Positions 27,000-42,234 of a stretch of 64,000 nucleotides of DNA are shown piece by piece (positions within the stretch are counted from its first letter, which is position 1; each line of letters starts with the position of its first letter). Location of the stretch: NCBI GenBank assembly GCA_037442885.1, contig JBBIPK010000009.1, forward strand, positions 4,249 through 68,248, given 5' to 3'. The DNA comes from Acidobacteriota bacterium. GTDB lineage: Bacteria > Acidobacteriota > Terriglobia > Acidiferrales > 2-02-FULL-67-57. A program made the translations under genes and the position numbers. A model generated the notes under the pieces. It was not told the DNA's origin. It made no database searches and saw nothing but the letters and a program-made list of their open reading frames with translations.

Positions 27000-28139
27000 T
27001 CAGCCGAAGATGTCCTTGACACGCCGGAACAGACTACTCTTCTCAACCGGGCGGTTCTCGGCCGGCCACGTTTCGGCCAATTGTTCGATCAAGCGCCGCT
27101 GCTCGCGGCTCAACTTTTTCGGCGTGACGACGTTGAGCTCGACCAACAGGTCCCCGCGCGCTCCCCCGTTCAGGCTAGGAAACCCCTTGCCCTTGAGCCG
27201 AATGATGGTGCCGCTCTGTGTCCCGCCCGGAATCTTGATTCGTTCCTCCCCGTCGAGAGTCGGCACGCGAATCTCGGCTCCCAGAGCCGCTTGCGGGAAC
27301 GTAATCGGCACCGAGCAGTAGAGCGTGTTTTCCCGGCGCTCGAATATCGGGTGCTCCTGCACGTGCAGGACGACGTAGAGGTCGCCCGCCGGACCTCCCT
27401 GGCTTCCGGCCTCCCCTTCCCCCGCGATTCGTAGCCTGGTCCCGGTGTCCACGCCGGCAGGAATCTTGATCTCCAGGGTCCGCTCGCGTTGCACTTGACC
27501 GCCACCCCGACACTCGGGGCAGGGATCACGCAGCACCTGGCCCGTGCCCTGACACTGCGGACACGTACGGGAAACGGTGAAGAATCCCTGCTGGTAGCGG
27601 AGCTGTCCGCGCCCGTGGCAGGCTTCGCAGGACGTGGGGCCGGTGCCGGCGCGGGCGCCCGAGCCCCGGCAGGAAGGGCAGGGTTCCCGCCCCGGCACTT
27701 TGATCTTGGTGGTAAGGCCACGCGCTGCCTCTTCGAAGCTGATCTCCATGTCGTAGCGAAGATCAGCGCCGCGCCGCACGCGTGCTCGGCGCCTCCTGCC
27801 TCCACCCAATCCAAACAGGTCTTCCAAGTTGAAGAGTCCACCGAACAGGTCTTCGAAATCCGCAAAGATGGTTTCGTCAAAGTCGGCGAACGGCTGCGCC
27901 CCCAATCCCGCGTGGCCGTAGCGGTCGTAGGCCGTCCGCTTCTGGGGATCGGCCAGGACGGTGTAGGCTTCCGTGATTTCCTTGAACCGTTCTTCCGCTT
28001 CGTGTTTGTTGCTCGGATTCCGGTCGGGATGCCACTGGAGGGCGAGGCGCCGGTAGGCTTTCTTGATTTCCTCGGCACCGGCCTGGCGGTTCACGCCGAG
28101 AACGTCATAGTAGTCGCGCTTTTGATTCGTAGTCGGCAT
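27000..28139 (-). CDS. dnaJ: molecular chaperone DnaJ
   Basis: Contains the J-domain (DYYDVLGV...HPDRN), a G/F region and four CxxCxGxG zinc motifs. The likely start is ATG 28139. Confidence 0.95.
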
Positions 28140-28143
28140 TCCT

Positions 28144-28692
28144 TCAGGTGCTGTTTCCATCGGAGCTTGCCGGGCGCACGGCCACTTTGACCAAAGCGGG
28201 CCGCAGCAGTTTCCCTTTGAAGGTATAGCCCTGCTGAAGCTCCTCCATCACCTCGCGGTCACCGAGCTCTTCGGTCTCAATCCGCTCCACCGCATGATGC
28301 AGATAGGGATCGAACAACTCGCCCAGTGCCTTGACCGGCTTCAGCCCGCGGAGCAGCAGAGCGTCAAGCAACTGCTTGTAAATGAGCTCCACACCTTTGC
28401 GATATTCCTCGTCTTGAAGGGCGTTGTTGGGCGCACGGAGAGCCCGCTCAAAGGCATCCAGAACCGGCAGCAGAGCGAGAATCAAGTCCGCCTCGGCGCG
28501 CTCGCGAAACTCCTGCGCGTCGCGTTCAGCGCGCTTGCGGTAGTTCTCGAAGTCTGCTTGCCGCCGGATCAGCTGCTCAAAGAGGGAATCCCGCTCAGCC
28601 TGGAGTTTCTTGAACGATTCCTCCAGGGACGGCTCGGCCGCCATAGCGGTCTCGGGTGCGGGCGTGCGGGAAACGTCTTCCTCGTCCCTCAA
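28144..28692 (-). CDS. grpE: nucleotide exchange factor GrpE
   Basis: Contains a coiled-coil N-terminus, then [16 protein letters not shown], then FDPYLHHAV. The TTG start is preceded by GGGAGAGGGGAAG. Confidence 0.9.
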
Positions 28693-28725
28693 CTTCCCCT
28701 CTCCCTGAATCTGGCAGGCGTTCTG

Positions 28726-29775
28726 CTAGTTTTCATGCAAGACCCGATCGAAGAGCCGGGCGACATAGGTGACGGCCGTGATCACCCGCGGATAATCCAT
28801 GCGGGTAGGGCCTAGGATGGCGAGAGAACCCAGAGGCCCAGCTCCGGCCCCATAGGAAGCGCTGATGAGAGCGTAATGCTGGATGGCCGGAGACAGTTGT
28901 TGCAGACCGATTCTGATGTGCACATTGGTTTCGACCTGTTCAACAGTGGCGCGCAGCAGGTGAACCAGCTTCTCTTTTTGCTCAATGGTCTGCAGCAGTT
29001 CGCGTAATTCGTCCCGGCCAGCTTCCTCCGCCTGCTCGATGAGATGGGGTGTGCCCTCCACGTAGACCGCGGCGCCTTCGCGGATGCCCGCCAGACTCTC
29101 CCGGCACAGCAGCGCCGCCCTGCGGGCGAGCCGTTCGTAACGCGAACGATCGCGAGCCGCACGCCGCTCGAGCTCCGCCGGGATGCTGGCCAGCGCCCAG
29201 CCGGGAAAATTGTCATTCAGGTACTGGGCGGTGCATTCCAACTCTTCGGGGGTAAACGGCTTCGGCAGGCGTAGCAGCACATCCTGGACCTGGCCGGTCT
29301 TGGTGAGGAGGATGACGAGCACCCGGTTTCCTTCCATCTGCAGAAAGCGCACTTGTTCCAGGGGCTCGCGGGTAACCGGCAGGGAGACGACGATGCCGAG
29401 TCCCTGTGCCAGTTCAGCGAGCACGTGCGAAGCCCGGGGGAGCAATTCTTCACCCTTGCCGCGCTGACTCAGGAGACGCGCATTGATCCAGTGCCGGTCG
29501 GCGCGGGAGAGTCGGGCACGCTCGGCCACCTGCCGGGCATAGAACTCGTATGCTTTGATCGTCGGTACTCGGCCGGCCGACGTGTGCGGTTGATGCAGGA
29601 ATCCTTGCGCTTCCAGGCGCGCCATGACTGCACGAATCGTCGCCGAAGAGAGTTCTCCGTGGTGCTGGCGAGCTATCTGACCCGAGGCAACTTCCTCTCC
29701 GGTCGCGATGTAGGTGTGCACGATCGCAGCCAGAATTTCCTCGTTGCGCCGCTGTTCTTTTTCCGGCGACACCAT
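28726..29775 (-). CDS. hrcA: heat-inducible transcription repressor HrcA
   Basis: Contains a winged-helix N-terminus (ILAAIVHTYIATGEEVASGQIA...SSATIRAVMARLEAQGFL) and the HrcA C-terminal domain. The likely start is ATG 29775. Confidence 0.9.
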   Translation of the reverse strand: MVSPEKEQRRNEEILAAIVHTYIATGEEVASGQIARQHHGELSSATIRAVMARLEAQGFLHQPHTSAGRVPTIKAYEFYARQVAERARLSRADRHWINARLLSQRGKGEELLPRASHVLAELAQGLGIVVSLPVTREPLEQVRFLQMEGNRVLVILLTKTGQVQDVLLRLPKPFTPEELECTAQYLNDNFPGWALASIPAELERRAARDRSRYERLARRAALLCRESLAGIREGAAVYVEGTPHLIEQAEEAGRDELRELLQTIEQKEKLVHLLRATVEQVETNVHIRIGLQQLSPAIQHYALISASYGAGAGPLGSLAILGPTRMDYPRVITAVTYVARLFDRVLHEN

Positions 29776-29816
29776 GCTGCGCAGCCTCGCCGAACCTCCA
29801 ATCGCTTTCCGCGCTG

Positions 29817-29845
29817 ATTTTACTGGCGCTGGCAAAGAGGGTCAA
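29817..29845 (-). promoter_or_regulatory. candidate promoter, TTGACC-N17-TAAAAT, for hrcA-grpE-dnaJ
   Basis: On the minus strand, TTGACC is at 29845..29840, followed by a 17-nt spacer and TAAAAT at 29822..29817. The -35 begins 3 nt after the aldehyde dehydrogenase stop. Confidence 0.5.
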
Positions 29846-29847
29846 GC

Positions 29848-31344
29848 TTACGGGTTCGTGTCAATCTGCGCCCGCTGCAAAGTACCGCTGAAGTCCACGT
29901 AGAGGCTCTTCCACTCGGAGAAGACGTCCAGGGCGGCCTGGCCGGCGTCCCGGTGCCCGTTGCCGGTTTGCTTGGTGCCTCCGAAGGGGAGCTGGATTTC
30001 CGCCCCAATGGTGGGCGCGTTGATGTAGACGATGCCGGTGTAGAGATCGCGCATGGCTGCGAAGGCCCGGTTCACATCGCGGGTATACAGAGCGGAGGAG
30101 AGGCCATAGACAACACCGTTGTTGATTTCGACTGCTTCCTCGAAGGTGTCAAATGGGATCACGGAAACAACGGGGCCGAAGATCTCTTCCTGAGAGATCC
30201 GCATCTTGGGGTCGCACTCACCGAAGATAGTGGGCGCATAGAAGGAGCCGTGCTCCCAGTCTCCGTCCGTCAGGGGATGCCCGCCGCACAAGAGACGCGC
30301 CCCTTCATCCTTCCCAATCTGCACATAGCTGTCCACTGTCTTGCGCTGGCTCTCGTTGATGCAAGGACCCATCTCCACGGTAGGATCCAGGCCGTTACCG
30401 ACCTTCAGGCTCTTCGCCCGGCGGACGAACTTCTCGGTGAATTCCTTGTACACCTTCTTGTGCACTGCGACGCGGCTTGCCGCCGTGCAGCGCTGCCCGG
30501 TCGTGCCGAAGCCGCCCCAGAGGGCGCCGTCCACCGCCAAGTCCAGGTCGGCGTCGTCCATCACGATGATCATGTTCTTGCCGCCCATCTCCAGGCTGCA
30601 ATGGCGGAAGTCCGGCGCGCAGGCTTCCGACACCATCCGCCCCACCTCGGTGGAACCCGTGAAGGAGATGACGCTGATGTCCTTGTGCTTCATGAGGGGC
30701 ACACCCACTGCGCCCCCCGAGCCGGTCACGAAGTTCAGCACTCCCTTGGGCAAACCTGCTTCGTTCAAGATCTTGACAAAATTCCAGCCCGAGAGCGGCG
30801 TATCGGTTGCCGGCTTGAAGACAACAGTATTTCCGCAGACGAGAGCGGGAAAAATCTTCCACGAGGGAATCGCCATGGGGAAATTCCAGGGGGTGATAAT
30901 TCCGCAGACACCGAGAGGCATCCGCACCGACATGGCAAACTTGTTGGGGAGCTCGGAGGGAACGGTGTGCCCGAACAGGCGGCGTCCCTCACCGGCCATG
31001 TAGAAGCCCATGTCAATGGCTTCCTGCACATCGCCGCGGGTTTCCTTGAGGATTTTCCCCATCTCGCGGGTCATGTCACGGGCCAATTCTTCTTTTCGCT
31101 CCACGAGCATTTGCGCGGCCCGATAGAGAATCTCGGCCCGTTTCGGGGCTGGCAGAAGCCGCCAGGAGCGGCAGGCCTCGCGCGCGGCTGCGATGGCGTC
31201 CTCGACGTCACACTTATCCGAGGCCTGGAATACTCCGATAACATCGCGGCGGTCAGCGGGGTTGGTGTTCTCAAAGGTTTTCCCGCACCGCGCCTCCACC
31301 CACTCACCGTTGATGAAATTCTTGTACACCTTGGGGGCTGCCAT
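29848..31344 (-). CDS. NAD(P)-dependent aldehyde dehydrogenase
   Basis: 498 aa. Contains [15 protein letters not shown] and the catalytic-Cys region GQRCTAASR. Confidence 0.9.
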
Positions 31345-31445: not shown

Positions 31446-31904
31446 TCAAGGGTCGCGGGGAGTGTTCGCTGCTTCTCCCGACGCTGTGGCCGGGCGCGGG
31501 GCCGCCTGGCCAGCGGTTTCTGGACCCAGGCCCAGTTTGATGAGGGAGAGAGCATCCGGCTTGCCGGTCTCCGGATGTCCGTGCTCTTTCTGGAAGCGGC
31601 GCATCGCTGCCTCTGTGGCACTGTCCCACTTACCTGTGGGCTCCGCCTGCAAATAGCCCGCTCGGCGTAACGCTTCCTGAATCTCCCGGATGCGCTCTGG
31701 GCTGGGCTGCTGCTGCGCTTGCTGCCTCCGAGAGCGTTTCCGCGCCGAGCGCCCGAATGGTTTCTTGGCTTGCTGCTGAAAAGCTGCACTCAGCCCCTTC
31801 CCGGGAGGTGGGTCGGCGTCAGCTGTCAGCGGAAGAAAAGCAAGCGGGGACAGCCAGAGGGCGAGGAAGGCAAGCTGGTGACGAATTCGTTGATGCAAGA
31901 GCAT
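31446..31904 (-). CDS. secreted peptidoglycan-binding-domain protein
   Basis: Contains a signal peptide and a C-terminal PG_binding_1-like repeat (IREIQEALRRAGYLQAEPTGKWDSATEAAMRRFQKEHG). Confidence 0.6.
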   Translation of the reverse strand: MLLHQRIRHQLAFLALWLSPLAFLPLTADADPPPGKGLSAAFQQQAKKPFGRSARKRSRRQQAQQQPSPERIREIQEALRRAGYLQAEPTGKWDSATEAAMRRFQKEHGHPETGKPDALSLIKLGLGPETAGQAAPRPATASGEAANTPRDP

Positions 31905-31916
31905 GAACGCAGGCGC

Positions 31917-33449
31917 TTAGGGGAGCGTGCGACCCAGATAGATCCAGAGCCAGCGGTCCTGCACGCGGCGCTTGATTCCGAAGACCACGTCGTCGCCAGA
32001 GCGCAAGCCGCGCTCGGTTGCCCGGAACTCCTCCAGGGTGCGCAGGCGGCGCTGATTGATTTCGACGATCAGGTCACCGCGAACCAGACCCACCTCATCC
32101 GCAAAGCCACCGGGCTCGACTTCCCGGACGACCAGACCCTGGTCTTGCTCGGGGTCAAGGCCCCAGCGCTGGAGAAGCCCAGGCGTTATTTCCTCCACAC
32201 GCAACCCCAGGCGTCCGGCCTCGACTTCCGCCTCGGCCGCAGCCTGCGGCTCGCCGCACCGGTCCGGGAAGACCTTGCAGCGATCTTCGACGCGAACCGA
32301 AATGCTTTGTTTCTTCTTTGCCCGAACGACCGTGAGGTGCACTTCCTGCCCAACCGGCGTTGCCGCCACGAGATCCACCAATTCGTCGCCGCCGCGGATG
32401 CGCTGGCCGTTCACCTCGGTGATGACATCTCCCCGCTGCAGGCCTGCCCGCTCGGCTGGGCTGCCCGGTTGCACCTCATCTACGATGTAGCCGGAATCCG
32501 CGCCGAAACTTCGCAACAGCACTTCCCGCTCCGCGTCCGAGCGCCGGATGGATTGGACACCAATCGAGCCGCGCACAACGCGACCCTGGGCACGAATCTG
32601 GTTGTAGACCTCACGCGCGATGTTGGACGGCAAGGCAAAACCGATGCCGGCGTTGGCGCCGCTGTTGGTCGCGATCATGGTATTGATGCCGATGACCTGA
32701 CCGGCCAGGTTCACCAGCGGCCCGCCGGAATTGCCCCGGTTGATGGCGGCATCCGTCTGCAGGAAGCGCTGGAACTGCTCGGCGCCAAGAACCTCGCGTC
32801 CTTTGTAACTGATGATTCCCGCCGTGACTGTAGCGTCGAAGCCAAACGGACTGCCTACGGCGAGCACCCAGTCCCCTACCTGTACGCCGTCGGAGTTACC
32901 CAGTTCGGCCACGGGGAGGGATCGATTGGGGTTGATCTTGATGACGGCGAGGTCGGTTTCCTGATCATAGCCCACCAGTTCCGCCTTGTATTCTTTGCTG
33001 TCACCGTGCACGCGCACCGTAATCCGGTCCGCCTGCCGCACGACGTGGTGATTGGTCAGGATGTAGCCACTCGCATCCACGATGACGCCGGAGCCCAAGC
33101 TGGTTTCCCGGAAGCTGCGGGGTGGCCCGAAGTCAAAGAAGCGTTCGAAGAAATCCTCGGGGGATTCGGGGCGGGAGCGGCGCTCGCTGGGTCGGACGAT
33201 GGTGTCGGTGCTGATGTTGACGACGGCCGGCTCGACCTGCTTGGCCACCTTGCTGAAAGCAGTGGAGAGCTCCACCGGGGAGGGGATGGCCAGCGGAGCG
33301 CCCGCGTTTCCCGAGCCGTCCCGGGCCGCGCGCACCCCGTTCGACACCAGTGTCCCCAGGAGGATGCCAACGGCCAGCGCGGCCGCAATCGCCAGGCGCG
33401 TACCCCACCGTTGCCGGTTGAACCACTGATAAACTTCTTCTGGCTTCAT
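31917..33449 (-). CDS. htrA: periplasmic serine endoprotease DegP/HtrA (two PDZ domains)
   Basis: Contains the trypsin-like core (TNHHV...D...GNSGGPLVN) and two PDZ domains. It has an N-terminal TM/signal segment. Confidence 0.9.
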   Translation of the reverse strand: MKPEEVYQWFNRQRWGTRLAIAAALAVGILLGTLVSNGVRAARDGSGNAGAPLAIPSPVELSTAFSKVAKQVEPAVVNISTDTIVRPSERRSRPESPEDFFERFFDFGPPRSFRETSLGSGVIVDASGYILTNHHVVRQADRITVRVHGDSKEYKAELVGYDQETDLAVIKINPNRSLPVAELGNSDGVQVGDWVLAVGSPFGFDATVTAGIISYKGREVLGAEQFQRFLQTDAAINRGNSGGPLVNLAGQVIGINTMIATNSGANAGIGFALPSNIAREVYNQIRAQGRVVRGSIGVQSIRRSDAEREVLLRSFGADSGYIVDEVQPGSPAERAGLQRGDVITEVNGQRIRGGDELVDLVAATPVGQEVHLTVVRAKKKQSISVRVEDRCKVFPDRCGEPQAAAEAEVEAGRLGLRVEEITPGLLQRWGLDPEQDQGLVVREVEPGGFADEVGLVRGDLIVEINQRRLRTLEEFRATERGLRSGDDVVFGIKRRVQDRWLWIYLGRTLP

Positions 33450-33763: not shown

Positions 33764-36700
33764 ATGGCTTTCCGTGAACATCCCGCCCCCAGCTTGCCTG
33801 AGGAGGAGGGCGTACGCATCGCCCGCCAACTCTACGGGCTCGACGCCACCGCCAAGGGGCTCCCCGGCGAGTACGACGACAACTTTCACCTTTTCGTCGC
33901 GGGCGGGGAGGAATTCACGCTCAAGGTCATGCGCCCTGGCGTCGAGTTCGACTTCATCGACATGCAGTGCCAGGCCCTGGCCCGCGTGGCCGAGCGCGCG
34001 CGGTCGCTCTCGCTGCCTCGCGTGTGCAAGACGCTGGCGGGAGAGGTCGTTGGCAGAGTCCGGGCCGCCGACGGGACAGAGCGCCTGGTCTGGATGTTGA
34101 CGTATGTCCCGGGTCGGGTGCTGGCCAAGACCAACCCGCACACTCCAGAGATGCGGTTCAGTCTCGGCCGTTTTCTGGGACGTATCGACGCCGCCCTGGA
34201 AGACTTCGACCACCCGGCGGCCCGGCGGGAGCTCAAGTGGGACCTCGCCCGCGCCAGCTGGATCCGCGACTACCTGCACCACATCCCTGATCCCGAGGGG
34301 CGCAAGCTCGTCAGTCGGCTTCTGACGATGTACGAAATCGAGGCCGCACCGGCGCTGCCGGCCCTGCGCCGGAGCGTGATTCACAACGACGCCAATGACT
34401 ACAACGTCCTGGTCAGCGAGTCCCGCACCGAGCCTCGGGAGGTGATCAGCGTCATAGATTTCGGCGACATGCTGCACACCCAAACCGTCGGCGAAGTAGC
34501 GGTGGCCGCCGCCTACGCGCTGCTGGGCGAGCGTGATCCGCTGGCGGCGGCCGCGCAGGTTGTGGCCGGATACCACAGGGCCTTTCCGCTCACCGAGCGA
34601 GAGATTTCGCTCCTCTTCCCGCTCATCTGCGCCCGGCTCTGCGTCAGCGTGACCAATTCAGCCTACCGGAAGACGATCGAGCCCGGCGATCCCCACGTCA
34701 CCATCAACGAACAGCCGGCCTGGGAGGCCTTGCAGCGATTGGCCGCCCTGCATCCGCGCTTTGCGCACTACACCCTCCGCCAAGCTTGCGGACTGTCTCC
34801 GGTGCCCGACGCTGAGTCGGTAGTGGCCTGGCTGCGCGCGCAGGCGAACGAGCTGGCGCCGGTGCTCGCCGATCTGCGAGGCTCGCCGAGTCTGGTCTTC
34901 GACCTGAGCGTGGGCAGCCTGCTCCTGGGGGCGAACCCGCAGGCGGCGGAGTCAGTCGCCTTGACGCTAACGCTCTTCGGGCAGATGCGCGCACAGGGTG
35001 CGCAGATCGGCATCGGGCGCTACGACGAGGCGCGGCTGCTCTATCCCTCTCCCGCCTACGCCACGGGAGAAAATCCCACCGATGAACGCCGCACCGTACA
35101 CCTGGGGATTGACCTCTTCGTCGCGCCGGGCACGCCCGTCCATGCGCCCCTGGCGGGAAACGTGCACTGTCTGGCCAACAATGCCGCCGACAAGGATTAT
35201 GGCCCGCTCATCATCTTGCAGCACGCCACCGACGCCGGCCGCCCCTTCTACACGCTTTATGGCCATCTGAGCGAGGAGTCCATCGGCAGGCTCACTCCCG
35301 GACAATCCCTGGCGCGCGGCGAGCGCTTGGGCAGCGTGGGCGCGCCGCCGACGAACGGCAACTGGCCGCCGCATCTCCACTTTCAACTCATCCTCGATTT
35401 GCTGGATCTGGACCGCAACTTCCCCGGCGTGGCGCTGGCCAGCCAGCGCGACGTGTGGCGGAGTCTCTCGCCTGATCCCAACGTCATCCTGGGACTCCCG
35501 GCGGAGCATCTTGCCTCGCGGGAGCCGACCAAGACGGAAATCTTGGCCTCGAGACGCCGGCACATCGGTCGAAACCTGAGACTTTCCTATCGGGAGCCGC
35601 TCCAGATCGTGCGCGGCTGGATGCAATACCTCTACGATGAGACGGGCCGGACCTACCTGGACGCTTACAACAACGTGCCGCACGTTGGGCACAGCCACCC
35701 GAGCGTCGTCAGGGCCGCGCAGGAGCAGATGGCCCTACTTAATACCAACACGCGCTATTTGCACGACAACCTGGCTCGCTACGCCGAGCGGTTGTGCGTC
35801 CGGCTGCCGGAGCCTCTCCGCATTTGCTTCTTCGTCAACTCGGGCAGCGAAGCGAACGAGTTGGCGCTGCGCCTGGCGCGGGCTCACACCGGCCGGGAGG
35901 ACGTCATCGTGCTCGAGGGAGCCTATCACGGACACACAACGGCCCTCATCGACGCCAGTCCGTATAAATTCTTTGGCCCGGGTGGCGCGGGGGCAAAAGC
36001 GTGGGTTCACGTGGCGCCGCTGCCCGACGACTACCGAGGCCCTTACCGACGAGACGATCCCGAGGCGGGCCAGAAGTACGCCCGGGAGGTTGCCCGGCTG
36101 GCGCAGGAGATCCAAGCGGAAGGTGGCGGCGTGGCTTGCTTCCTTTGCGAGCCGCTTCCCAGCACGGCCGGGCAGATTGTGCCGCCACCCAGCTACCTGG
36201 CGGATGCCTACCGCTACGTGCGCAAAGCGGGCGGGCTCTGCATTGCCGATGAGGTGCAGGTGGGCTTCGGCCGCCTGGGCAGCCATTTCTGGGGATTTGA
36301 GACGCAGGGCGTGGTGCCCGACATTGTGGTGCTGGGCAAACCGATTGGCAACGGCCATCCTCTGGGTGCGGTGGTGACCACGCCCGAGGTCGCTGCCTCC
36401 TTTGACACCGGCATGGAATTCTTCAGCACCTTCGGCGGGAACACCGTCTCCTGCGCCGTGGGCTTGGCGGTCCTAGAGGTCATCGAAAAGGAGCGTCTCC
36501 AAGAGCACGCCCAGCGCGTGGGAAGCCATCTCCTGGCCGGCTTGCGCGGGTTGTTGGACAAGCATCCTGTGGTCGGCGATGTGCGGGGTCTCGGCCTGTT
36601 TGTGGGGGTCGAGCTGGTTCGCGATCGCACTACGCTGGAGCCGGCTCCCAGCGAGACCTCCTATGTGGTAAACCGGCTGCGCGAGCGGGGCATCCTCACC

Positions 36701-36826
36701 GGCACTGAGGGACGATTTCAGAACGTGATCAAGATCCGCCCGCCCCTCCCCTTCAGCGAGGCGGACGCGGACCTCGTGGTCAAGACGCTAGATGAAGTCC
36801 TTCGCGAAGACCTGGCCCAGACCTAG
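33764..36826 (+). CDS. tri-domain protein: APH/hydroxylysine-kinase-like phosphotransferase, then M23 peptidase domain, then class-III PLP enzyme of the ETNPPL/PHYKPL (ammoniophospholyase) type
   Basis: 1020 aa. Kinase motifs are HNDANDYN (aa 207-214) and IDFGD (231-235). M23 motifs are HLGID (446-450), YGHL (499-502) and PHLHFQL (536-542). The aminotransferase part (about aa 600-1020) aligns by eye along its length with human ETNPPL ([39 protein letters not shown]-like [19 protein letters not shown]-Lys in [20 protein letters not shown]). Confidence 0.85.
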
Positions 36827-37024: not shown

Positions 37025-37789
37025 ATGCGCGGCCTCAAGGGCAAGAACGTGCTGGTGACGGGTGGAGCCAGTGGCATAGGCCAAGCCACCGCGACGCGTT
37101 TCCTGGAAGAGGGCTGCGCCGTTTGCGTCCTCGATCGCAACGCCGCGGCGCGAGCCCGCGTCGCCCAGGAGATGCCTGGGTTGACCGCGATGATTGACGC
37201 CGACGTCTCCAGCCTGGAACAAGTACAGACGGCCTTCGCAGAGGCGATTGATCGCATGGGCTCAGTCGACGTCCTCATCAACAACGCCGGCATTAGTATC
37301 CGCCACGACTTCCTCGAGATCACCCGCGAGGAGTGGGACGCCGTCCTGGCTGTCAACCTCAACGGAGTCTTCTACGTGGCACAGACCGCCGCGCGCCACA
37401 TGATGGACAAGGGCTCCGGCGTGATTCTCAACACCGCCTCCACGGCAGCTTCCACCGGCTACCCACACTATGCCGATTACAGCGCCAGCAAGGGAGGCGT
37501 GATCGCTTTGACCCGGGCAATGGCTTTGGAGCTGGCTCCCGTGGTCCGCGTGAACGCGGTCTCCCCCGGCTACGTACTCACCCCCATGCAGCGCGCCGAG
37601 TACACGGACGCGATGCTGGACGCCGTGAACCGCAAGATCCCCTTGCGGCGACACGCGAAACCGGAGGAGATTGCCGCGCTGTTTGCTTTCCTGGCCTCCG
37701 AGGACGCTGCCTTTGCCACTGGCCACGTCTATGTCCTCGACGGCGCAGAAACCACCGGGGGCCTCTGCAGCCAGTGGGTCCACGAGTAG
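37025..37789 (+). CDS. SDR family oxidoreductase
   Basis: 254 aa. Contains TGGASGIG, NNAG and YxxxK (YADYSASK). Confidence 0.9.
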   Translation: MRGLKGKNVLVTGGASGIGQATATRFLEEGCAVCVLDRNAAARARVAQEMPGLTAMIDADVSSLEQVQTAFAEAIDRMGSVDVLINNAGISIRHDFLEITREEWDAVLAVNLNGVFYVAQTAARHMMDKGSGVILNTASTAASTGYPHYADYSASKGGVIALTRAMALELAPVVRVNAVSPGYVLTPMQRAEYTDAMLDAVNRKIPLRRHAKPEEIAALFAFLASEDAAFATGHVYVLDGAETTGGLCSQWVHE

Positions 37790-37820: not shown

Positions 37821-38582
37821 ATGAGGCTGAAAGGAAAGGTAGCTCTAATAACCGGAGGGACCTCGGGAATCGGCAGGGCCACCGCCAAACTTTTCGCCCG
37901 CGAGGGGGCGGCGGTCGCGATCACCGGGCGCAATGCTGAGCGGGGGGAGCAGGTGGTTCAGGCTATCGTCGCCAATGGCGGCCAGGCCCTATTCATACGT
38001 TCCGATGTGCGCTTTGCCGACGAGTGTCGCCGGGCGGTCGAACAGACTCTTGAGCGCTTCGGCAAGATTGACGTCCTGTTCAATAACGCCGGAGTGTTCC
38101 ATCCCAAGACCGTCCCGGAATGCACCGAAGAGGAATGGGACGAGACCATCGACTCCTCTCTCAAGGGCGCCTTCCTGATGTCGAAATACGTGCTGCCCTC
38201 GATGATCGAGCGCGGCAGTGGCTCGATCATCCACAATAGCTCTGGCTGGGGAATCCAGGGAGGCGACAAGGCGGCGGCCTACTGCGCCGCCAAAGGTGGA
38301 TTGGTGGTGATGGCCAAGGCGATGGCGATTGACCACGGCCCCGACGGCATCCGCGTGAACTGCGTCTGCCCGGGCGATGTGCAAACCCCCATGCTGCGTG
38401 ACGATGCTGCCAAGCGGGGCCTGTCCTGGGAGGAATACGCTGCCGCTGCCGCCAACCGACCACTCGGTCGCATTGGCACCGCCGAGGAAATCGCTAACGC
38501 GGTGCTGTTTCTGGCCTCTGACGAGTCCTCCTTCGTGACCGGCGAGGCGCTGGTCGTCGACGGTGGGGGCGTCGCCGACTGA
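37821..38582 (+). CDS. SDR family oxidoreductase (paralogue of the preceding gene)
   Basis: 253 aa. Contains TGGTSGIG, NNAG and YCAAK. Confidence 0.9.
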   Translation: MRLKGKVALITGGTSGIGRATAKLFAREGAAVAITGRNAERGEQVVQAIVANGGQALFIRSDVRFADECRRAVEQTLERFGKIDVLFNNAGVFHPKTVPECTEEEWDETIDSSLKGAFLMSKYVLPSMIERGSGSIIHNSSGWGIQGGDKAAAYCAAKGGLVVMAKAMAIDHGPDGIRVNCVCPGDVQTPMLRDDAAKRGLSWEEYAAAAANRPLGRIGTAEEIANAVLFLASDESSFVTGEALVVDGGGVAD

Positions 38583-38656
38583 GCAGCCCCGCCGCGCCGC
38601 CTGCGCAACTCTTTTCGGCCCTCTTCCGCTGACATCTGATTGCTGACCTCTGACCG

Positions 38657-39182
38657 CCGAGGAGAAGCGCGGCGCGAAGTGGCCGACCGCAATGATGTGG
38701 CCCGCGTAGCAGACGGCGCAGAAAACCGTGAACAGGTCGCCTCGATTGATGACAAACCGTTCCGCAGGGATCGTGAGGAAATAGAGGCCTGCCACGGCCA
38801 TCACGACGCCAGCGGCTGGGCCGAGATGAATCCGGCGCCCGAAAAACAAGGCGAGAAACAGAGGAACCAAGGCTACAGACAACCCGGTGATGAAGGCGGA
38901 TTTGGCGGGAGTTGTATACTGCAGTCCGATTGTCTGGAAACTGAACCCCGCAGCCAGAAACGCCCCAATCACGATTCCGGCCTGCGCGAGTCCGGCCTGG
39001 CGCAGACCCGCCCGGCGGCCTGCGACCAGCAGCAACACGGCCAATGCCAAGCAGAAGCGCAGGAGCAAGAAGAGAAGAGGAGAAGCGTAGGCGAGCGCAT
39101 CCTTGACGACGACAAAGGTGCTGCCCCAGACAAAGCTGATGAAGGCCAGCAGCAGGTCGGCCTCGAGGCGTTTGCGGGTCAA
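38657..39182 (-). pseudogene. EamA/DMT transporter, first 5-TM half only; the ORF lacks a stop and continues antisense through the SDR gene to 37989
   Basis: The first ~175 aa of track ORF 37989..39182 are typical EamA (LLAFISFVWGSTFVVVKDAL..., five hydrophobic segments). After ...GHIIAVGHFAPRFSS the sequence becomes non-membrane and R/G/A-rich and is antisense to 37821..38582. Confidence 0.55.
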
Positions 39183-40873
39183 TCCCGGCTGCCCTCGGGG
39201 GTTGCGGGGTGGGGGTGCAGGCGATCGAAAACGATCTTGCCCCCGACCACGGTCATCAACACCTGCACGCGCAGGAGATCGCGGGGCGGGAGTCGCGTCA
39301 GATCGTGCGAGAGGACGATGAAGTCAGCGAACATGCCCGGCGCGAGCGTTCCCTTGCGGTGGTTTTCGAATTCTGCGGCGGCTGAGCCTTGCGTGTAGGC
39401 TCGGATCGCGTCTTCCAGGGTGATTTTCTCCTCCGGTACCCAGCCACCCGCTGGCCCGCCATCTTCAAACTCGCGGGTGACGGCGGCGTAGAGGCCACGG
39501 AAGGGATTGATCAACTCGACCGGGTAATCGGTGCCAAACGCCAGGACGGGGCTGTCCCGGAGGAGAGTCTTCCAGGGATAGGCTTCGCGCAGGCGAGCAG
39601 GGCCGAGCAGGGCCGGAGCCCAGCGCATGTCGCTCAGGATGTGGCTGGGCTGCATGGAGGCAATCACGCCGAGCTCGCCGAAGCGCGGGGCATCGTCGGG
39701 ATGCACGAATTGAGCATGCTCGATCTTGTGACGCGCATCACGCCGCGTGGGATTGGCGGCGCGGGCGGCGGCGAAGGCATCCAGCGCGACCCGGACGGCG
39801 CGGTCGCCAATGGCGTGGAGCGTGATCTGGAAGCCGGCCGCGTCCCGTTCGATCACCATCTGCTTCAACTGTTCAGGCTCGTAGAGCAGGATGCCGCGGT
39901 TGTTGGGCTCGTCGGAGAAGGGCTCGAGCATCGCCGCCGAATGGGAGCCGCCGCTGCCGTCGGTGACACCCTTCAAGGCGCCGGTCTTGAGCCAGGGATC
40001 GCTGGTACCGCCCTGCTCGCGGCGGGCTTTCAGCGTTTCCAGGGGCGCATTGAAGGCCAGCCATTCGGTAACGCGCGCGGTCAGCTTGCCTTCTTGCTTC
40101 AACTCCTGCAGGGCGAGAAAGTCCTCCCAGGAGGAGTTGTCTTGCAACGAAGTTACGCCATTCTGTGCGGCCTCGCGGAGTGCAAGTTCCAGGCCGCGTT
40201 TCCGCTGCTCAGGCGTCGGCTCGGGGATGTGCCGCGCGACCAGCCCTTCGGCTCTCTCTTTGAGCCAGCCGGTCGGCTCGCCCGTGGCGTCGCGCACAAT
40301 GTCGCCGCCTTCCGGATTGGGGGTGTCGCGGGTGATACCGGCGATGGTGAGCGCCAGTGAGTTCGCGACCGAGGAGTGGCCATCGACCCGCTCCAAGAGC
40401 ATGGGATGCTGCGTGGTAACGGCGTCGAGGTCGGCGCGGGTAGGGATGCGCGGCTCCGGCCAGAGCGAGTGGTCCCAGCCGCGCCCCACAATCCACTGAC
40501 CGGGGGCAAATTCCGACAGCCGGGCACGAATCCGTTCTTGCATCTCGGCCAGGGAGCGCGCGCCGGTCAAGTCCACCGTCAGCTTGCTGCGGCCTGCGCC
40601 GCCCAAGTGAACGTGAGCATCATTGAACCCGGGCATGACGAAGCGGCCTTGCAGGTCGAGAAGGCGAGTCTTGGGTCCGATCCAGCGCTGGACTTGCTTG
40701 CGCGTCCCGGCGGCAACGATGCGCTCGCCCTGGATCGCCAGTGCTTCCACCCGTCCCAGAGTTCGCGTCCCGGTGTAGATGACCCCGTTCTGAAGAACGA
40801 GATCGGCCTGCTGCGCCGCGGCGGACGGCGCAAGGAGCAGCAGAAACAGAAATACCCGGCCCATCCACGTCAT
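39179..40873 (-). CDS. secreted amidohydrolase (YtcJ-like, Amidohydro_3 type)
   Basis: From ATG 40873 (ATGA overlap with the upstream stop) the sequence has a signal peptide MTWMGRVFLFLLLLAPSAAAQQ, then ADLVLQNGVIYTG, then PGFNDAHVHL (HxH metal site), then a C-terminal ...DFIVLSHD. Confidence 0.85.
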   Translation of the reverse strand: MTWMGRVFLFLLLLAPSAAAQQADLVLQNGVIYTGTRTLGRVEALAIQGERIVAAGTRKQVQRWIGPKTRLLDLQGRFVMPGFNDAHVHLGGAGRSKLTVDLTGARSLAEMQERIRARLSEFAPGQWIVGRGWDHSLWPEPRIPTRADLDAVTTQHPMLLERVDGHSSVANSLALTIAGITRDTPNPEGGDIVRDATGEPTGWLKERAEGLVARHIPEPTPEQRKRGLELALREAAQNGVTSLQDNSSWEDFLALQELKQEGKLTARVTEWLAFNAPLETLKARREQGGTSDPWLKTGALKGVTDGSGGSHSAAMLEPFSDEPNNRGILLYEPEQLKQMVIERDAAGFQITLHAIGDRAVRVALDAFAAARAANPTRRDARHKIEHAQFVHPDDAPRFGELGVIASMQPSHILSDMRWAPALLGPARLREAYPWKTLLRDSPVLAFGTDYPVELINPFRGLYAAVTREFEDGGPAGGWVPEEKITLEDAIRAYTQGSAAAEFENHRKGTLAPGMFADFIVLSHDLTRLPPRDLLRVQVLMTVVGGKIVFDRLHPHPATPEGSRD

Positions 40874-42234
40874 GGCTCCACCCCGGTGAGGAGCAGCAGC
40901 GCCAGCAGGACGCGCTTGGTTCCCAACTCGCGATCCGTGGGGTCGTACCATTCGCGCAGCGAATGAGACGAGCCGCTGCGGCCGCCCCCGCTGACCGCGA
41001 CCGCTTCCATCCCCAGCGCGATCGGAACATTCGCGTCGGTGGAGGCGGTACGGAACTGCGTCTTGATGCCCAGGTGGTTATCCACGGCGCGGAAGACCTC
41101 GACAATGCGCGCCGATTCGGGGACCTCGCCACCGGGACGCTCGCCAATCGTCTTAATTTCAGCCTGGAGACTTTCCGAGCGCCGCGCCGCCTTGTTCTCG
41201 GCTTCTACGGCCCGCGCAACCGCCTGGCCGACTGCTTGTTCCAGCCGCGTGATTTCCTCCGCACCTTCCGAGCGGATGTCAATCTTCATCGCAGCCTGGT
41301 AGGGAATCGAGTTCACCGAGGTTCCCCCTTCGATGACACCCACGTTCAAGACCGTGCGGGGCTTTTCCGGGATGGAGACACCGGCCAGTTCGGTGATGGC
41401 ACGTGCCAGCGCTTGAATGGGGTTCGGCAGACCGAAGTCACCCCAGCTATGACCGCCCGGGCCGCGCACGGTCACCTCCAGGCGTTTGCTGCCCAGAGCC
41501 CGGCGGGTCAGGCGGTCGTTGCCCGAGCCGTCAATCGCGATTACGGCGCGCGTTTTCTGCCGAAGCTCGTTGTCATCCAGCAGATGCTTGATGCCGCGAA
41601 GATTTCCTTCGCCTTCCTCGCCCACATTGGCAACGAAGAGGATGCTGGCGGCTGTGGCCACCTTGGCCGTCCCGAGGGCACGGATCACCGCGAGCAACGT
41701 GGCCAAACCGTTGCCGTTGTCTGAAACGCCGGGACCCACGAGCCGCTTCCCTTCCCGCGCCACGCGCACCGGTGTTTCCGGAGGGAATACCGTGTCCAGA
41801 TGAGCGGCCAGGATGACCCAACTGTTCGCATCGCGGCCGCGGTATTCGCCGAGTACATTCCCGATGGCATCGATGCGCACGTGTTCCAGGCCCAGGTTGC
41901 GGAATTGGGCTTCGAGGTAGCGGGCCCGCTCGCCTTCTTGGAAGGGGGGAGCGGGGATTTCCGTCACCCGAATCTGTTCCGCCAGGGTCCAATCGGACAG
42001 GTCATCGGCAGCGCGCAGGGCGCGGGCGACGGCCGGGTGCTGGGCCAGCGCGGCGGGATTCATCTCAACTGTAGAGAGTCGGACAGGCATAAGCAGGGTA
42101 AGCAGGAACGCTGCAAGTAACGCGCAAGCTCTGCTCAAGGGTTTCGACCCAGAATCCCATCCCTCGTGTTTGCGCTCTAGGACGAACGCGCCACCTTGGG
42201 GCGTTCCGAAGGCACCGGGACGTCTTCGCCGCAC
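40870..42234 (-). CDS. secreted M20/M28-type metallopeptidase
   Basis: Contains AAHLDTVFP...GVSDNGNGLA...NVGEEGEGNLRG and a hydrophobic signal (ACALLAAFLLTLL). The start is uncertain (GTG 42234 or TTG 42138). Confidence 0.8.
   Translation of the reverse strand: MRRRRPGAFGTPQGGAFVLERKHEGWDSGSKPLSRACALLAAFLLTLLMPVRLSTVEMNPAALAQHPAVARALRAADDLSDWTLAEQIRVTEIPAPPFQEGERARYLEAQFRNLGLEHVRIDAIGNVLGEYRGRDANSWVILAAHLDTVFPPETPVRVAREGKRLVGPGVSDNGNGLATLLAVIRALGTAKVATAASILFVANVGEEGEGNLRGIKHLLDDNELRQKTRAVIAIDGSGNDRLTRRALGSKRLEVTVRGPGGHSWGDFGLPNPIQALARAITELAGVSIPEKPRTVLNVGVIEGGTSVNSIPYQAAMKIDIRSEGAEEITRLEQAVGQAVARAVEAENKAARRSESLQAEIKTIGERPGGEVPESARIVEVFRAVDNHLGIKTQFRTASTDANVPIALGMEAVAVSGGGRSGSSHSLREWYDPTDRELGTKRVLLALLLLTGVEP

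Follow-up and report, generated by a model that had tools for sequence, protein, structure and literature searches.

We asked why a domain of the M23 peptidase type should sit between two metabolic enzyme domains in one bacterial protein. The protein is encoded on a 64,000-nucleotide (nt) stretch of an Acidobacteriota bacterium genome (assembly GCA_037442885.1, contig JBBIPK010000009.1, positions 4,249 to 68,248 of the forward strand), here called the window, whose first letter is position 1 in the coordinates given below. Its gene lies on the plus strand (33764..36826), begins with ATG, has no internal stop, and specifies a tri-domain protein of 1020 amino acids (aa) that belongs to the PRK06148 family. 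An original prediction, made from the letters of the window, described a kinase of the APH type, an M23 domain, and a class-III pyridoxal 5'-phosphate (PLP) enzyme joined in one open reading frame (ORF), and offered no settled role for the middle part. The logic of the kinase and the lyase is already known; the remaining interest lies in the conserved cytoplasmic M23 clade. Four points are new in this analysis: (i) the M23 part as an autonomous module, (ii) its invariant site, (iii) its occurrence as a stand-alone protein, and (iv) its absence from operons in which the kinase and the lyase are split.

Searches of the 1020-aa protein against Pfam returned APH at residues 31-272 (3e-16), Peptidase_M23 at 445-542 (6e-16), and Aminotran_3 at 613-1013 (1.4e-77), in the predicted order and within an uninterrupted ORF. 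We divide the protein into (i) a small-molecule kinase domain of the APH fold, residues 1-325 (33764..34738), based on the Pfam match; (ii) an M23 module, residues 326-590 (34739..35533), delimited by stand-alone homologues, alignments, and an AlphaFold2 model, with its catalytic core at residues 441-545 (35084..35398) placed by Pfam and conserved residues; and (iii) a class-III, fold-type I PLP domain, residues 591-1020 (35534..36823), based on Aminotran_3 and on matches to the solved structures 6tor and 5g4i. The motifs quoted in the prediction were all located: HNDANDYN (207-214), IDFGD (231-235), HLGID (446-450), YGHL (499-502), HLH as part of PHLH (536-539), and K859 in GKPIGNG, whose codon is at 36338..36340 as predicted. 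A hydropathy scan found no stretch resembling a signal peptide or transmembrane segment (12-aa maximum of 0.3 in residues 1-45; 19-aa maximum of 1.55 over the whole protein), in agreement with the predicted lack of a signal peptide, and the fusion is thus a predicted cytoplasmic enzyme. An AlphaFold2 model of the full-length protein reached a predicted local distance difference test (pLDDT) score of 83.9 and a predicted template modeling (pTM) score of 0.85, a value that would fit a fixed packing of the three domains.

The fusion is a genuine protein with many relatives. The NCBIfam model NF004799 (PRK06148) matched with 1342.7 bits against a cut-off of 1128, aligning protein residues 5-1017 to positions 5-1012 of the 1015 in the model; its curated name is only "hypothetical protein", and membership gives no function. 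All of the 120 best relatives in a large protein collection are about 1020 aa long, with the three Pfam domains of the window protein and an identity to it of 63-91%. A genome scan with one genome per species gave 592 confirmed candidate loci, and the locus-level counts below refer to the best 80 of these 592. Nearly all of the 80 encode full-length proteins, 50-65% identical to that of the window, and they come from Acidobacteriota (the majority), Chloroflexota, Gemmatimonadales, Eisenbacteria, Desulfobacterales, Rhodothermales, Caldithrix, Clostridia/Heliobacteriaceae, and two Thorarchaeota assemblies. A search of plasmid proteins added a tri-domain protein on Sinorhizobium meliloti pSymB, 46% identical across some 1000 aa, and others in Phyllobacterium, Tritonibacter, Ensifer, and further genera. 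Since the curated model is matched end to end, the 120 relatives share size and domains, and the 80 loci are full-length, the fusion is not an artefact; the NF004799 match and the full-length orthologues in many phyla rule out a frameshift or mis-assembly that joined separate genes. Both the architecture and its phyletic spread, which the prediction had marked for checking, are therefore confirmed, with full-length relatives in at least 80 species genomes from many phyla. The architecture is not a novelty, but an already curated and widespread bacterial family. Veiga-da-Cunha et al. are said to have named, in a 2012 abstract, bacterial "bi- or tri-functional" fusions of AGXT2L homologues and APH-type kinases as the clue to the human enzymes. 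The original prediction likewise traced the discovery of these functions to the association or fusion of the two families in bacteria, which fits Ellens et al. 2017, in which the discovery of the human phospho-lyases is listed as assisted by comparative genomics (PMC5714238).

We then turned to the extent of the M23 part. It consists of an N-terminal subdomain of about 115 aa, the M23 core, and C-terminal helices that form an extension of about 45 aa. When residues 335-590 were searched against representative proteins, 508 clusters matched at E<=1e-30, with the whole 256-aa query aligned, well beyond the Pfam core of about 100 aa. The matches fall into three classes: full-length fusions, proteins that end near residue 580, and proteins of 210-280 aa that span only residues 326 to 581 or so. 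Modelled alone by AlphaFold2 with its stand-alone homologues, the module formed one compact unit (pLDDT 92.9, pTM 0.92). Based on the model, the M23 part is predicted with confidence to fold on its own, as an autonomous module that comprises residues 326-590 (about 265 aa). No Pfam family was found for residues 326-445 or 546-598, and neither a PDB sequence search nor Foldseek against the PDB gave a fold match for the N-terminal 115 aa or so or for the C-terminal helices; the Foldseek matches of the module (ShyA, lysostaphin, LytM, Csd3, DipM, EnvC, and others) cover the M23 core only.

The active site of the module is complete and conserved. Pfam and alignments identify the residue pair H446/D450 (35099..35113), H501 (35264..35266), the pair H537/H539 (35372..35380), and H487. 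Across 81 orthologues, H446, D450, H487, H537, and H539 are 100% conserved and H501 is 95% conserved. Over the wider set of about 266 sequences, both fused and stand-alone, there is essentially no variation at the zinc ligands H446, D450, and H539, at the catalytic H501 and H537, or at H487, nor at seven residues specific to the clade (G418, E422, R424, R443, N531, W534, and Q541). The claim that the M23 domain retains its metal and catalytic motifs thus stands for H446, D450, H539, H501, and H537, and loss of the zinc ligands among orthologues, which would have spoken against it, was seen neither in the 81 orthologues nor in the larger set. We regard the module as a unit that evolved separately and has its zinc and catalytic site complete.

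Stand-alone M23 proteins of 210-280 aa are real genes in cultured Thalassospira, Pontibacter, Fibrella, and Ponticaulis, and on a plasmid of Vibrio tritonius. Their identity to residues 326-590 is about 45%, and their annotation reads "peptidoglycan DD-metalloendopeptidase family protein"; we found no characterised member among them. Examples of 210-265 aa are P0302, P0369, P0359, P0366, and P0176, with loci L081-L083 and L091-L093. In a crude hydropathy scan, 89 of the 91 stand-alone homologues showed no hydrophobic N-terminal or transmembrane-like segment. We considered whether the stand-alone protein is a split-gene partner of the kinase and lyase, and rejected this idea, as none of the six genomic contexts examined contained an APH or class-III gene, and the six had no neighbour in common. 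A kinase-M23 protein with only two domains also exists: P0216 and P0387 (585-588 aa, 72% identical to each other) have no adjacent class-III lyase, and this small clade appears genuine. Around the gene of P0387 (L094 6001-7767) lie a LysR gene and several EamA genes, and a fold-type II PLP (PALP) gene runs convergently and overlaps its 3' end. A third candidate, P0460 (L095 6001-9081), was rejected as a true kinase-M23 protein: two Aminotran_3 fragments follow it on a contig full of fragmented genes, and the likeliest explanation is an ordinary tri-domain gene that frameshifts in the assembly have split up. Its case is a caution for many "representatives" of 550-630 aa.

The kinase and lyase also occur together without the module. 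Plasmids of Rahnella, Klebsiella, and Azospirillum carry a homologous APH kinase (31-34% identity) and a class-III PLP enzyme (38-49%) as adjacent, co-directional, separate genes. The association of kinase and lyase is independent of the fusion. No M23 gene is present in these split operons, which argues that the core chemistry does without the module; by this comparison, the M23 module is an add-on, dispensable for the kinase-lyase pair. Neighbours of the split pairs include GntR regulators, amino-acid ATP-binding cassette (ABC) transporters (annotated as lysine/arginine/ornithine type in Klebsiella), a short-chain dehydrogenase/reductase (SDR) in Rahnella, and an EamA exporter in Klebsiella. 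The EamA gene follows the split pair on the Klebsiella plasmid (L087), and an EamA ORF is also found near the fusion in the window. On S. meliloti pSymB (L085 5758-11961, corresponding to about 1203418-1210000 of NC_003078.1), the fusion gene is the last in an apparent operon, after an amino-acid ABC substrate-binding protein, a permease, and an SDR whose gene ends 14 nt before it; the orthologue is placed at NC_003078.1 1203418-1207126. An SDR thus precedes both the S. meliloti fusion and the Rahnella split pair. SDR, GntR, and ABC-transporter neighbours recur in Proteobacteria, where the SDRs are not orthologous to those of the window. Because the split pairs adjoin GntR regulators and amino-acid ABC transporters, and the pSymB fusion follows an ABC transporter and an SDR, the gene associations point to a catabolic, uptake-linked role.

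What the module adds to such a pathway can be approached from its active site. Because this site is intact and invariant, and because the module exists independently, we argue for zinc-dependent hydrolysis in the cytoplasm. Most likely, the module would contribute a hydrolytic step in which the amino alcohol is freed from a precursor that binds it through an amide or peptide link, or some similar amidase activity in the cytoplasm; alternatively, it could be a structural adaptor. In its full form, the hydrolytic proposal holds that the 265-aa module represents an uncharacterised clade of cytoplasmic M23 metallo-hydrolases and that, in the fusion, it cleaves a precursor such as a hydroxylysine peptide or an N-acylated amino alcohol as the first step of a three-step catabolic assembly line, setting free an amino alcohol that the kinase and lyase on either side would go on to degrade. 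We put this forward tentatively and consider it unlikely in that form. The structural proposal makes the module a non-catalytic scaffold that fixes the geometry of kinase and lyase, or oligomerises, and so passes the phosphorylated intermediate from site to site. It accords with the existence of kinase-lyase pairs as separate genes without M23, with the compactness of the full-length model (pTM 0.85), and with the known role of LytM-type domains as non-catalytic regulators, EnvC and DipM being among the structural matches. However, non-catalytic LytM domains typically lack zinc ligands, having usually lost them, unlike this module, in which H446, D450, H501, H537, and H539 vary neither between phyla nor among the stand-alone proteins; moreover, the stand-alone copies come without a kinase or lyase that they could hold together. 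We regard a scaffold as possible but doubtful.

The C-terminal domain is the part whose relatives are best defined. Human ETNPPL (6tor) aligned to residues 590-1013 with an E value of about 1e-146 (7.5e-146, and 6.4e-147 in a second search), and the Arthrobacter phospholyase A1RDF1 (5g4i) matched at about 1e-101 (6.6e-101 and 1.2e-101). All other PDB matches, which include racemases, dialkylglycine decarboxylase, and transaminases, had E values no better than 3.6e-59, about 85 orders of magnitude weaker than 6tor. Foldseek comparison of the AlphaFold model gave 51% identity and a target TM-score of 0.90 for 6tor, and 42% and 0.88 for 5g4i. The predicted alignment with human ETNPPL over about 420 aa, including the PLP lysine, was therefore recovered. 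K859 and D829 are invariant among orthologues, as are the surroundings of K859. These comparisons put the PLP domain in the clade of ETNPPL and A1RDF1 phospho-lyases. ETNPPL and a close relative, a discovery of comparative genomics, are cited as the only documented lyases in the class-III group (PMC5714238; PMC8154272, the PbfA paper). Could the domain instead be a transaminase or racemase that acts on a phosphorylated or amino compound in biosynthesis or salvage? Class-III enzymes are mostly transaminases (PMC8154272), and NCBIfam and the source annotations label relatives "aminotransferase". In contrast, the two closest solved relatives have been assigned experimentally as phospho-lyases (1e-146 and 1e-101), with racemases and transaminases appearing only from about 1e-59, and no specific transaminase model reaches its cut-off, which makes this alternative improbable.

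The N-terminal domain scored 60.3 bits against the APH model (PF01636; gathering score 23.2) and has the hallmarks of an APH kinase: the ATP-binding K54 (33923..33925), the HxDxxxxN catalytic loop formed by H207, D209, and N214 (34382..34405), and the metal-binding D232 of IDFGD (34457..34459), placed by motif and conservation. K54, D209, N214, D232, and D235 are invariant across the 81 orthologues. We found no close solved relative of this domain. A profile built from 13 diverse orthologues matched amicoumacin kinase (6sui, 2.2e-07), 6ef6, and homoserine kinase II (2ppq), within a range of 1e-7 to 1e-4, and NCBIfam gave weak matches to homoserine kinase type II. The entry 6ef6 was deposited as an aminoglycoside phosphotransferase, and we take it to be the aminopropanol kinase of Mycobacterium smegmatis. 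The nearest solved relatives all appear to be small-molecule hydroxyl kinases, so the predicted APH-type kinase is retained here as a small-molecule hydroxyl kinase of the APH fold. Another reading, in which the kinase modifies or gives resistance to an antibiotic-like amino compound of the amicoumacin or aminoglycoside type and the fusion serves detoxification, is highly improbable. In its favour, the best solved relative of the profile is an amicoumacin kinase and the Pfam family is that of the aminoglycoside phosphotransferases. Against it, the resemblance is weak, and homoserine kinase and 6ef6 show it equally; an ETNPPL-type lyase is the obligatory partner; the split homologues adjoin amino-acid uptake systems and GntR regulators; and the protein is distributed widely and vertically in soil phyla.

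Taken together, we consider it probable that the protein works as originally predicted: an amino alcohol is first phosphorylated, and elimination of phosphate and ammonia then yields a carbonyl compound. It would be a self-contained catabolic enzyme. A kinase step followed by a phospho-lyase step is well supported, because homology and gene association agree; the reaction and the substrate are what we infer from them. The substrate would be a compound with a primary amine next to a hydroxylated carbon, of the ethanolamine, 1-aminopropan-2-ol, or 5-hydroxylysine type. By homology, the N-terminal kinase would use ATP to phosphorylate the hydroxyl. The C-terminal domain, by its likeness to ETNPPL and A1RDF1, would then form an external aldimine with the amine via K859, eliminate phosphate, and release ammonia and an aldehyde or ketone. 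The PLP domain probably mediates dimer formation, as in other fold-type I enzymes. Four points weigh against a pathway of kinase, lyase, and precursor-cleaving module. No enzymology for any tri-domain member was found in the searchable literature, and none of the literature found dealt with the tri-domain protein or with a cytoplasmic M23. No neighbour is conserved among the 80 loci, in Acidobacteriota, Chloroflexota, or other phyla, beyond lineage synteny. The stand-alone modules are unlinked to kinase or lyase genes, and their native activity may have nothing to do with amino alcohols. Finally, a kinase-M23 protein with no class-III lyase beside it is not predicted by a simple three-step model.

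The neighbourhood in the window adds little to this picture. Downstream lie SDR1 (37025..37789) and SDR2 (37821..38582), both on the plus strand and both identified by Pfam adh_short/adh_short_C2; NCBIfam gives them generic SDR names only. They had been proposed to carry out the next step of the pathway, by reducing or oxidising the carbonyl product, a suggestion that the comparisons did not support: SDR-like genes lie near the fusion in 5 of the 80 other loci, the window SDRs are only 26-31% identical to those beside the S. meliloti and Rahnella homologues, and the 199-nt gap between the fusion and SDR1 contains a promoter-like site (no terminator-like site was found in this gap). We tried both the downstream SDRs and the aldehyde dehydrogenase (ALDH) gene located 2.4 kb upstream (29848..31344, minus strand) as pathway partners. 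Neighbour BLAST against the 80 loci and de novo clustering of their flanks gave lineage synteny only, made up of housekeeping genes (TopA, XerC-like, DprA-like, and MqnA-like), and the candidates were set aside as unsupported. The SDR link is a weak recurring theme and not an established pathway step. The top NCBIfam model for the ALDH is alpha-ketoglutaric-semialdehyde dehydrogenase, under its cut-off.

The remaining features of the region are as follows. An HtrA-like protease gene (31917..33449, minus strand) lies upstream and is divergent from the fusion. Between it and the ALDH gene is a 152-aa ORF (31446-31904, minus strand) with an N-terminal hydrophobic segment; by eye only, its C-terminal stretch resembles a peptidoglycan-binding repeat. 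The heat-shock operon hrcA-grpE-dnaJ (27000-29835, minus strand), upstream of the ALDH gene, indicates an ordinary chromosomal context. On the other side, a convergent minus-strand ORF with a single EamA domain (38640-39182; Pfam 1e-15) extends to 37989 and so runs antisense through SDR2; a gene for an EamA transporter that is half-size or truncated is the probable reading. It is followed by an Amidohydro_3 gene (39179..40951) and an M20-like hydrolase ORF (40870..42234), both on the minus strand, which overlap by 82 nt when each is called from its first start codon; the downstream gene probably has its true start at a later position.

We see several consequences of these findings. A kinase coupled to a phospho-lyase would be a B12-independent, ATP-consuming route to the use of ethanolamine-, aminopropanol-, or hydroxylysine-type compounds as a nitrogen or carbon source. 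Acidobacteriota and Chloroflexota, which are dominant soil phyla, commonly carry the gene, as do rhizobia, and the route could therefore matter for nitrogen turnover. M23 enzymes are, to our knowledge, known almost solely as extracytoplasmic peptidoglycan hydrolases or as degenerate regulators of these. If active, a signal-less and catalytically equipped M23 clade, both fused and alone, would extend the biology of the family, and precursor cleavage by the module, if true, would be an intracellular, non-peptidoglycan function for the M23 fold. The orthologue on S. meliloti pSymB makes the M23 question testable in a genetic model organism, and its apparent operon is a tractable model for finding the substrate.

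How does the fusion compare with known systems? Its closest counterpart is NF004799/PRK06148 itself, which has its three domains in identical order and shows no structural difference. The sister family NF004800/PRK06149 scored 785 bits where its cut-off is 973, and its alignment to the M23 module is only weak. With the peptidoglycan M23/LytM metallopeptidases (lysostaphin, LytM, ShyA, MepM, and Csd3), the module shares the catalytic fold and the full HxxxD...H...HxH set; in contrast, its sequence is distant from theirs (best PDB E value of 9e-07), the fusion has no signal peptide or membrane anchor, and the module sits in the chain between metabolic domains on both sides, its flanking extensions belonging to no known family. 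The export signal or anchor expected of an envelope peptidoglycan hydrolase was not found by the crude hydropathy scan, and the domain is internal, between cytoplasmic enzyme domains.

At the level of gene sets, the split operons resemble the actinobacterial RMM locus for amino-alcohol degradation, which comprises a phosphotransferase, an SDR, an aminotransferase, a permease, and a GntR regulator (PMC4207490). The split operons and RMM differ from the window gene in being unfused and in having no M23 module, whereas the window gene has no conserved transporter or regulator alongside and no microcompartment shell genes. As for an RMM-like set, the neighbours of the fusion in the window are the SDRs 199 nt downstream, the ALDH 2.4 kb upstream on the opposite strand, and the half-size EamA; none of these is conserved in the 80 loci. 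At the level of the lyase, Arthrobacter aurescens A1RDF1 is likewise a bacterial class-III PLP phospho-lyase, but it stands alone, with no fused kinase or M23 domain. Human ETNPPL (AGXT2L1), the O-phosphoethanolamine phospho-lyase, shares its whole catalytic domain with the C-terminal 430 aa of the fusion, and their 51% identity does not discriminate between phosphoethanolamine and 5-phosphohydroxylysine as the preferred compound of the fusion. We know of no human protein with the M23 module. ETNPPL and its paralogue PHYKPL (AGXT2L2) are single-domain proteins, and the matching kinase, HYKK, is encoded by a separate gene; the fusion, in contrast, has kinase, M23 module, and lyase in one chain.

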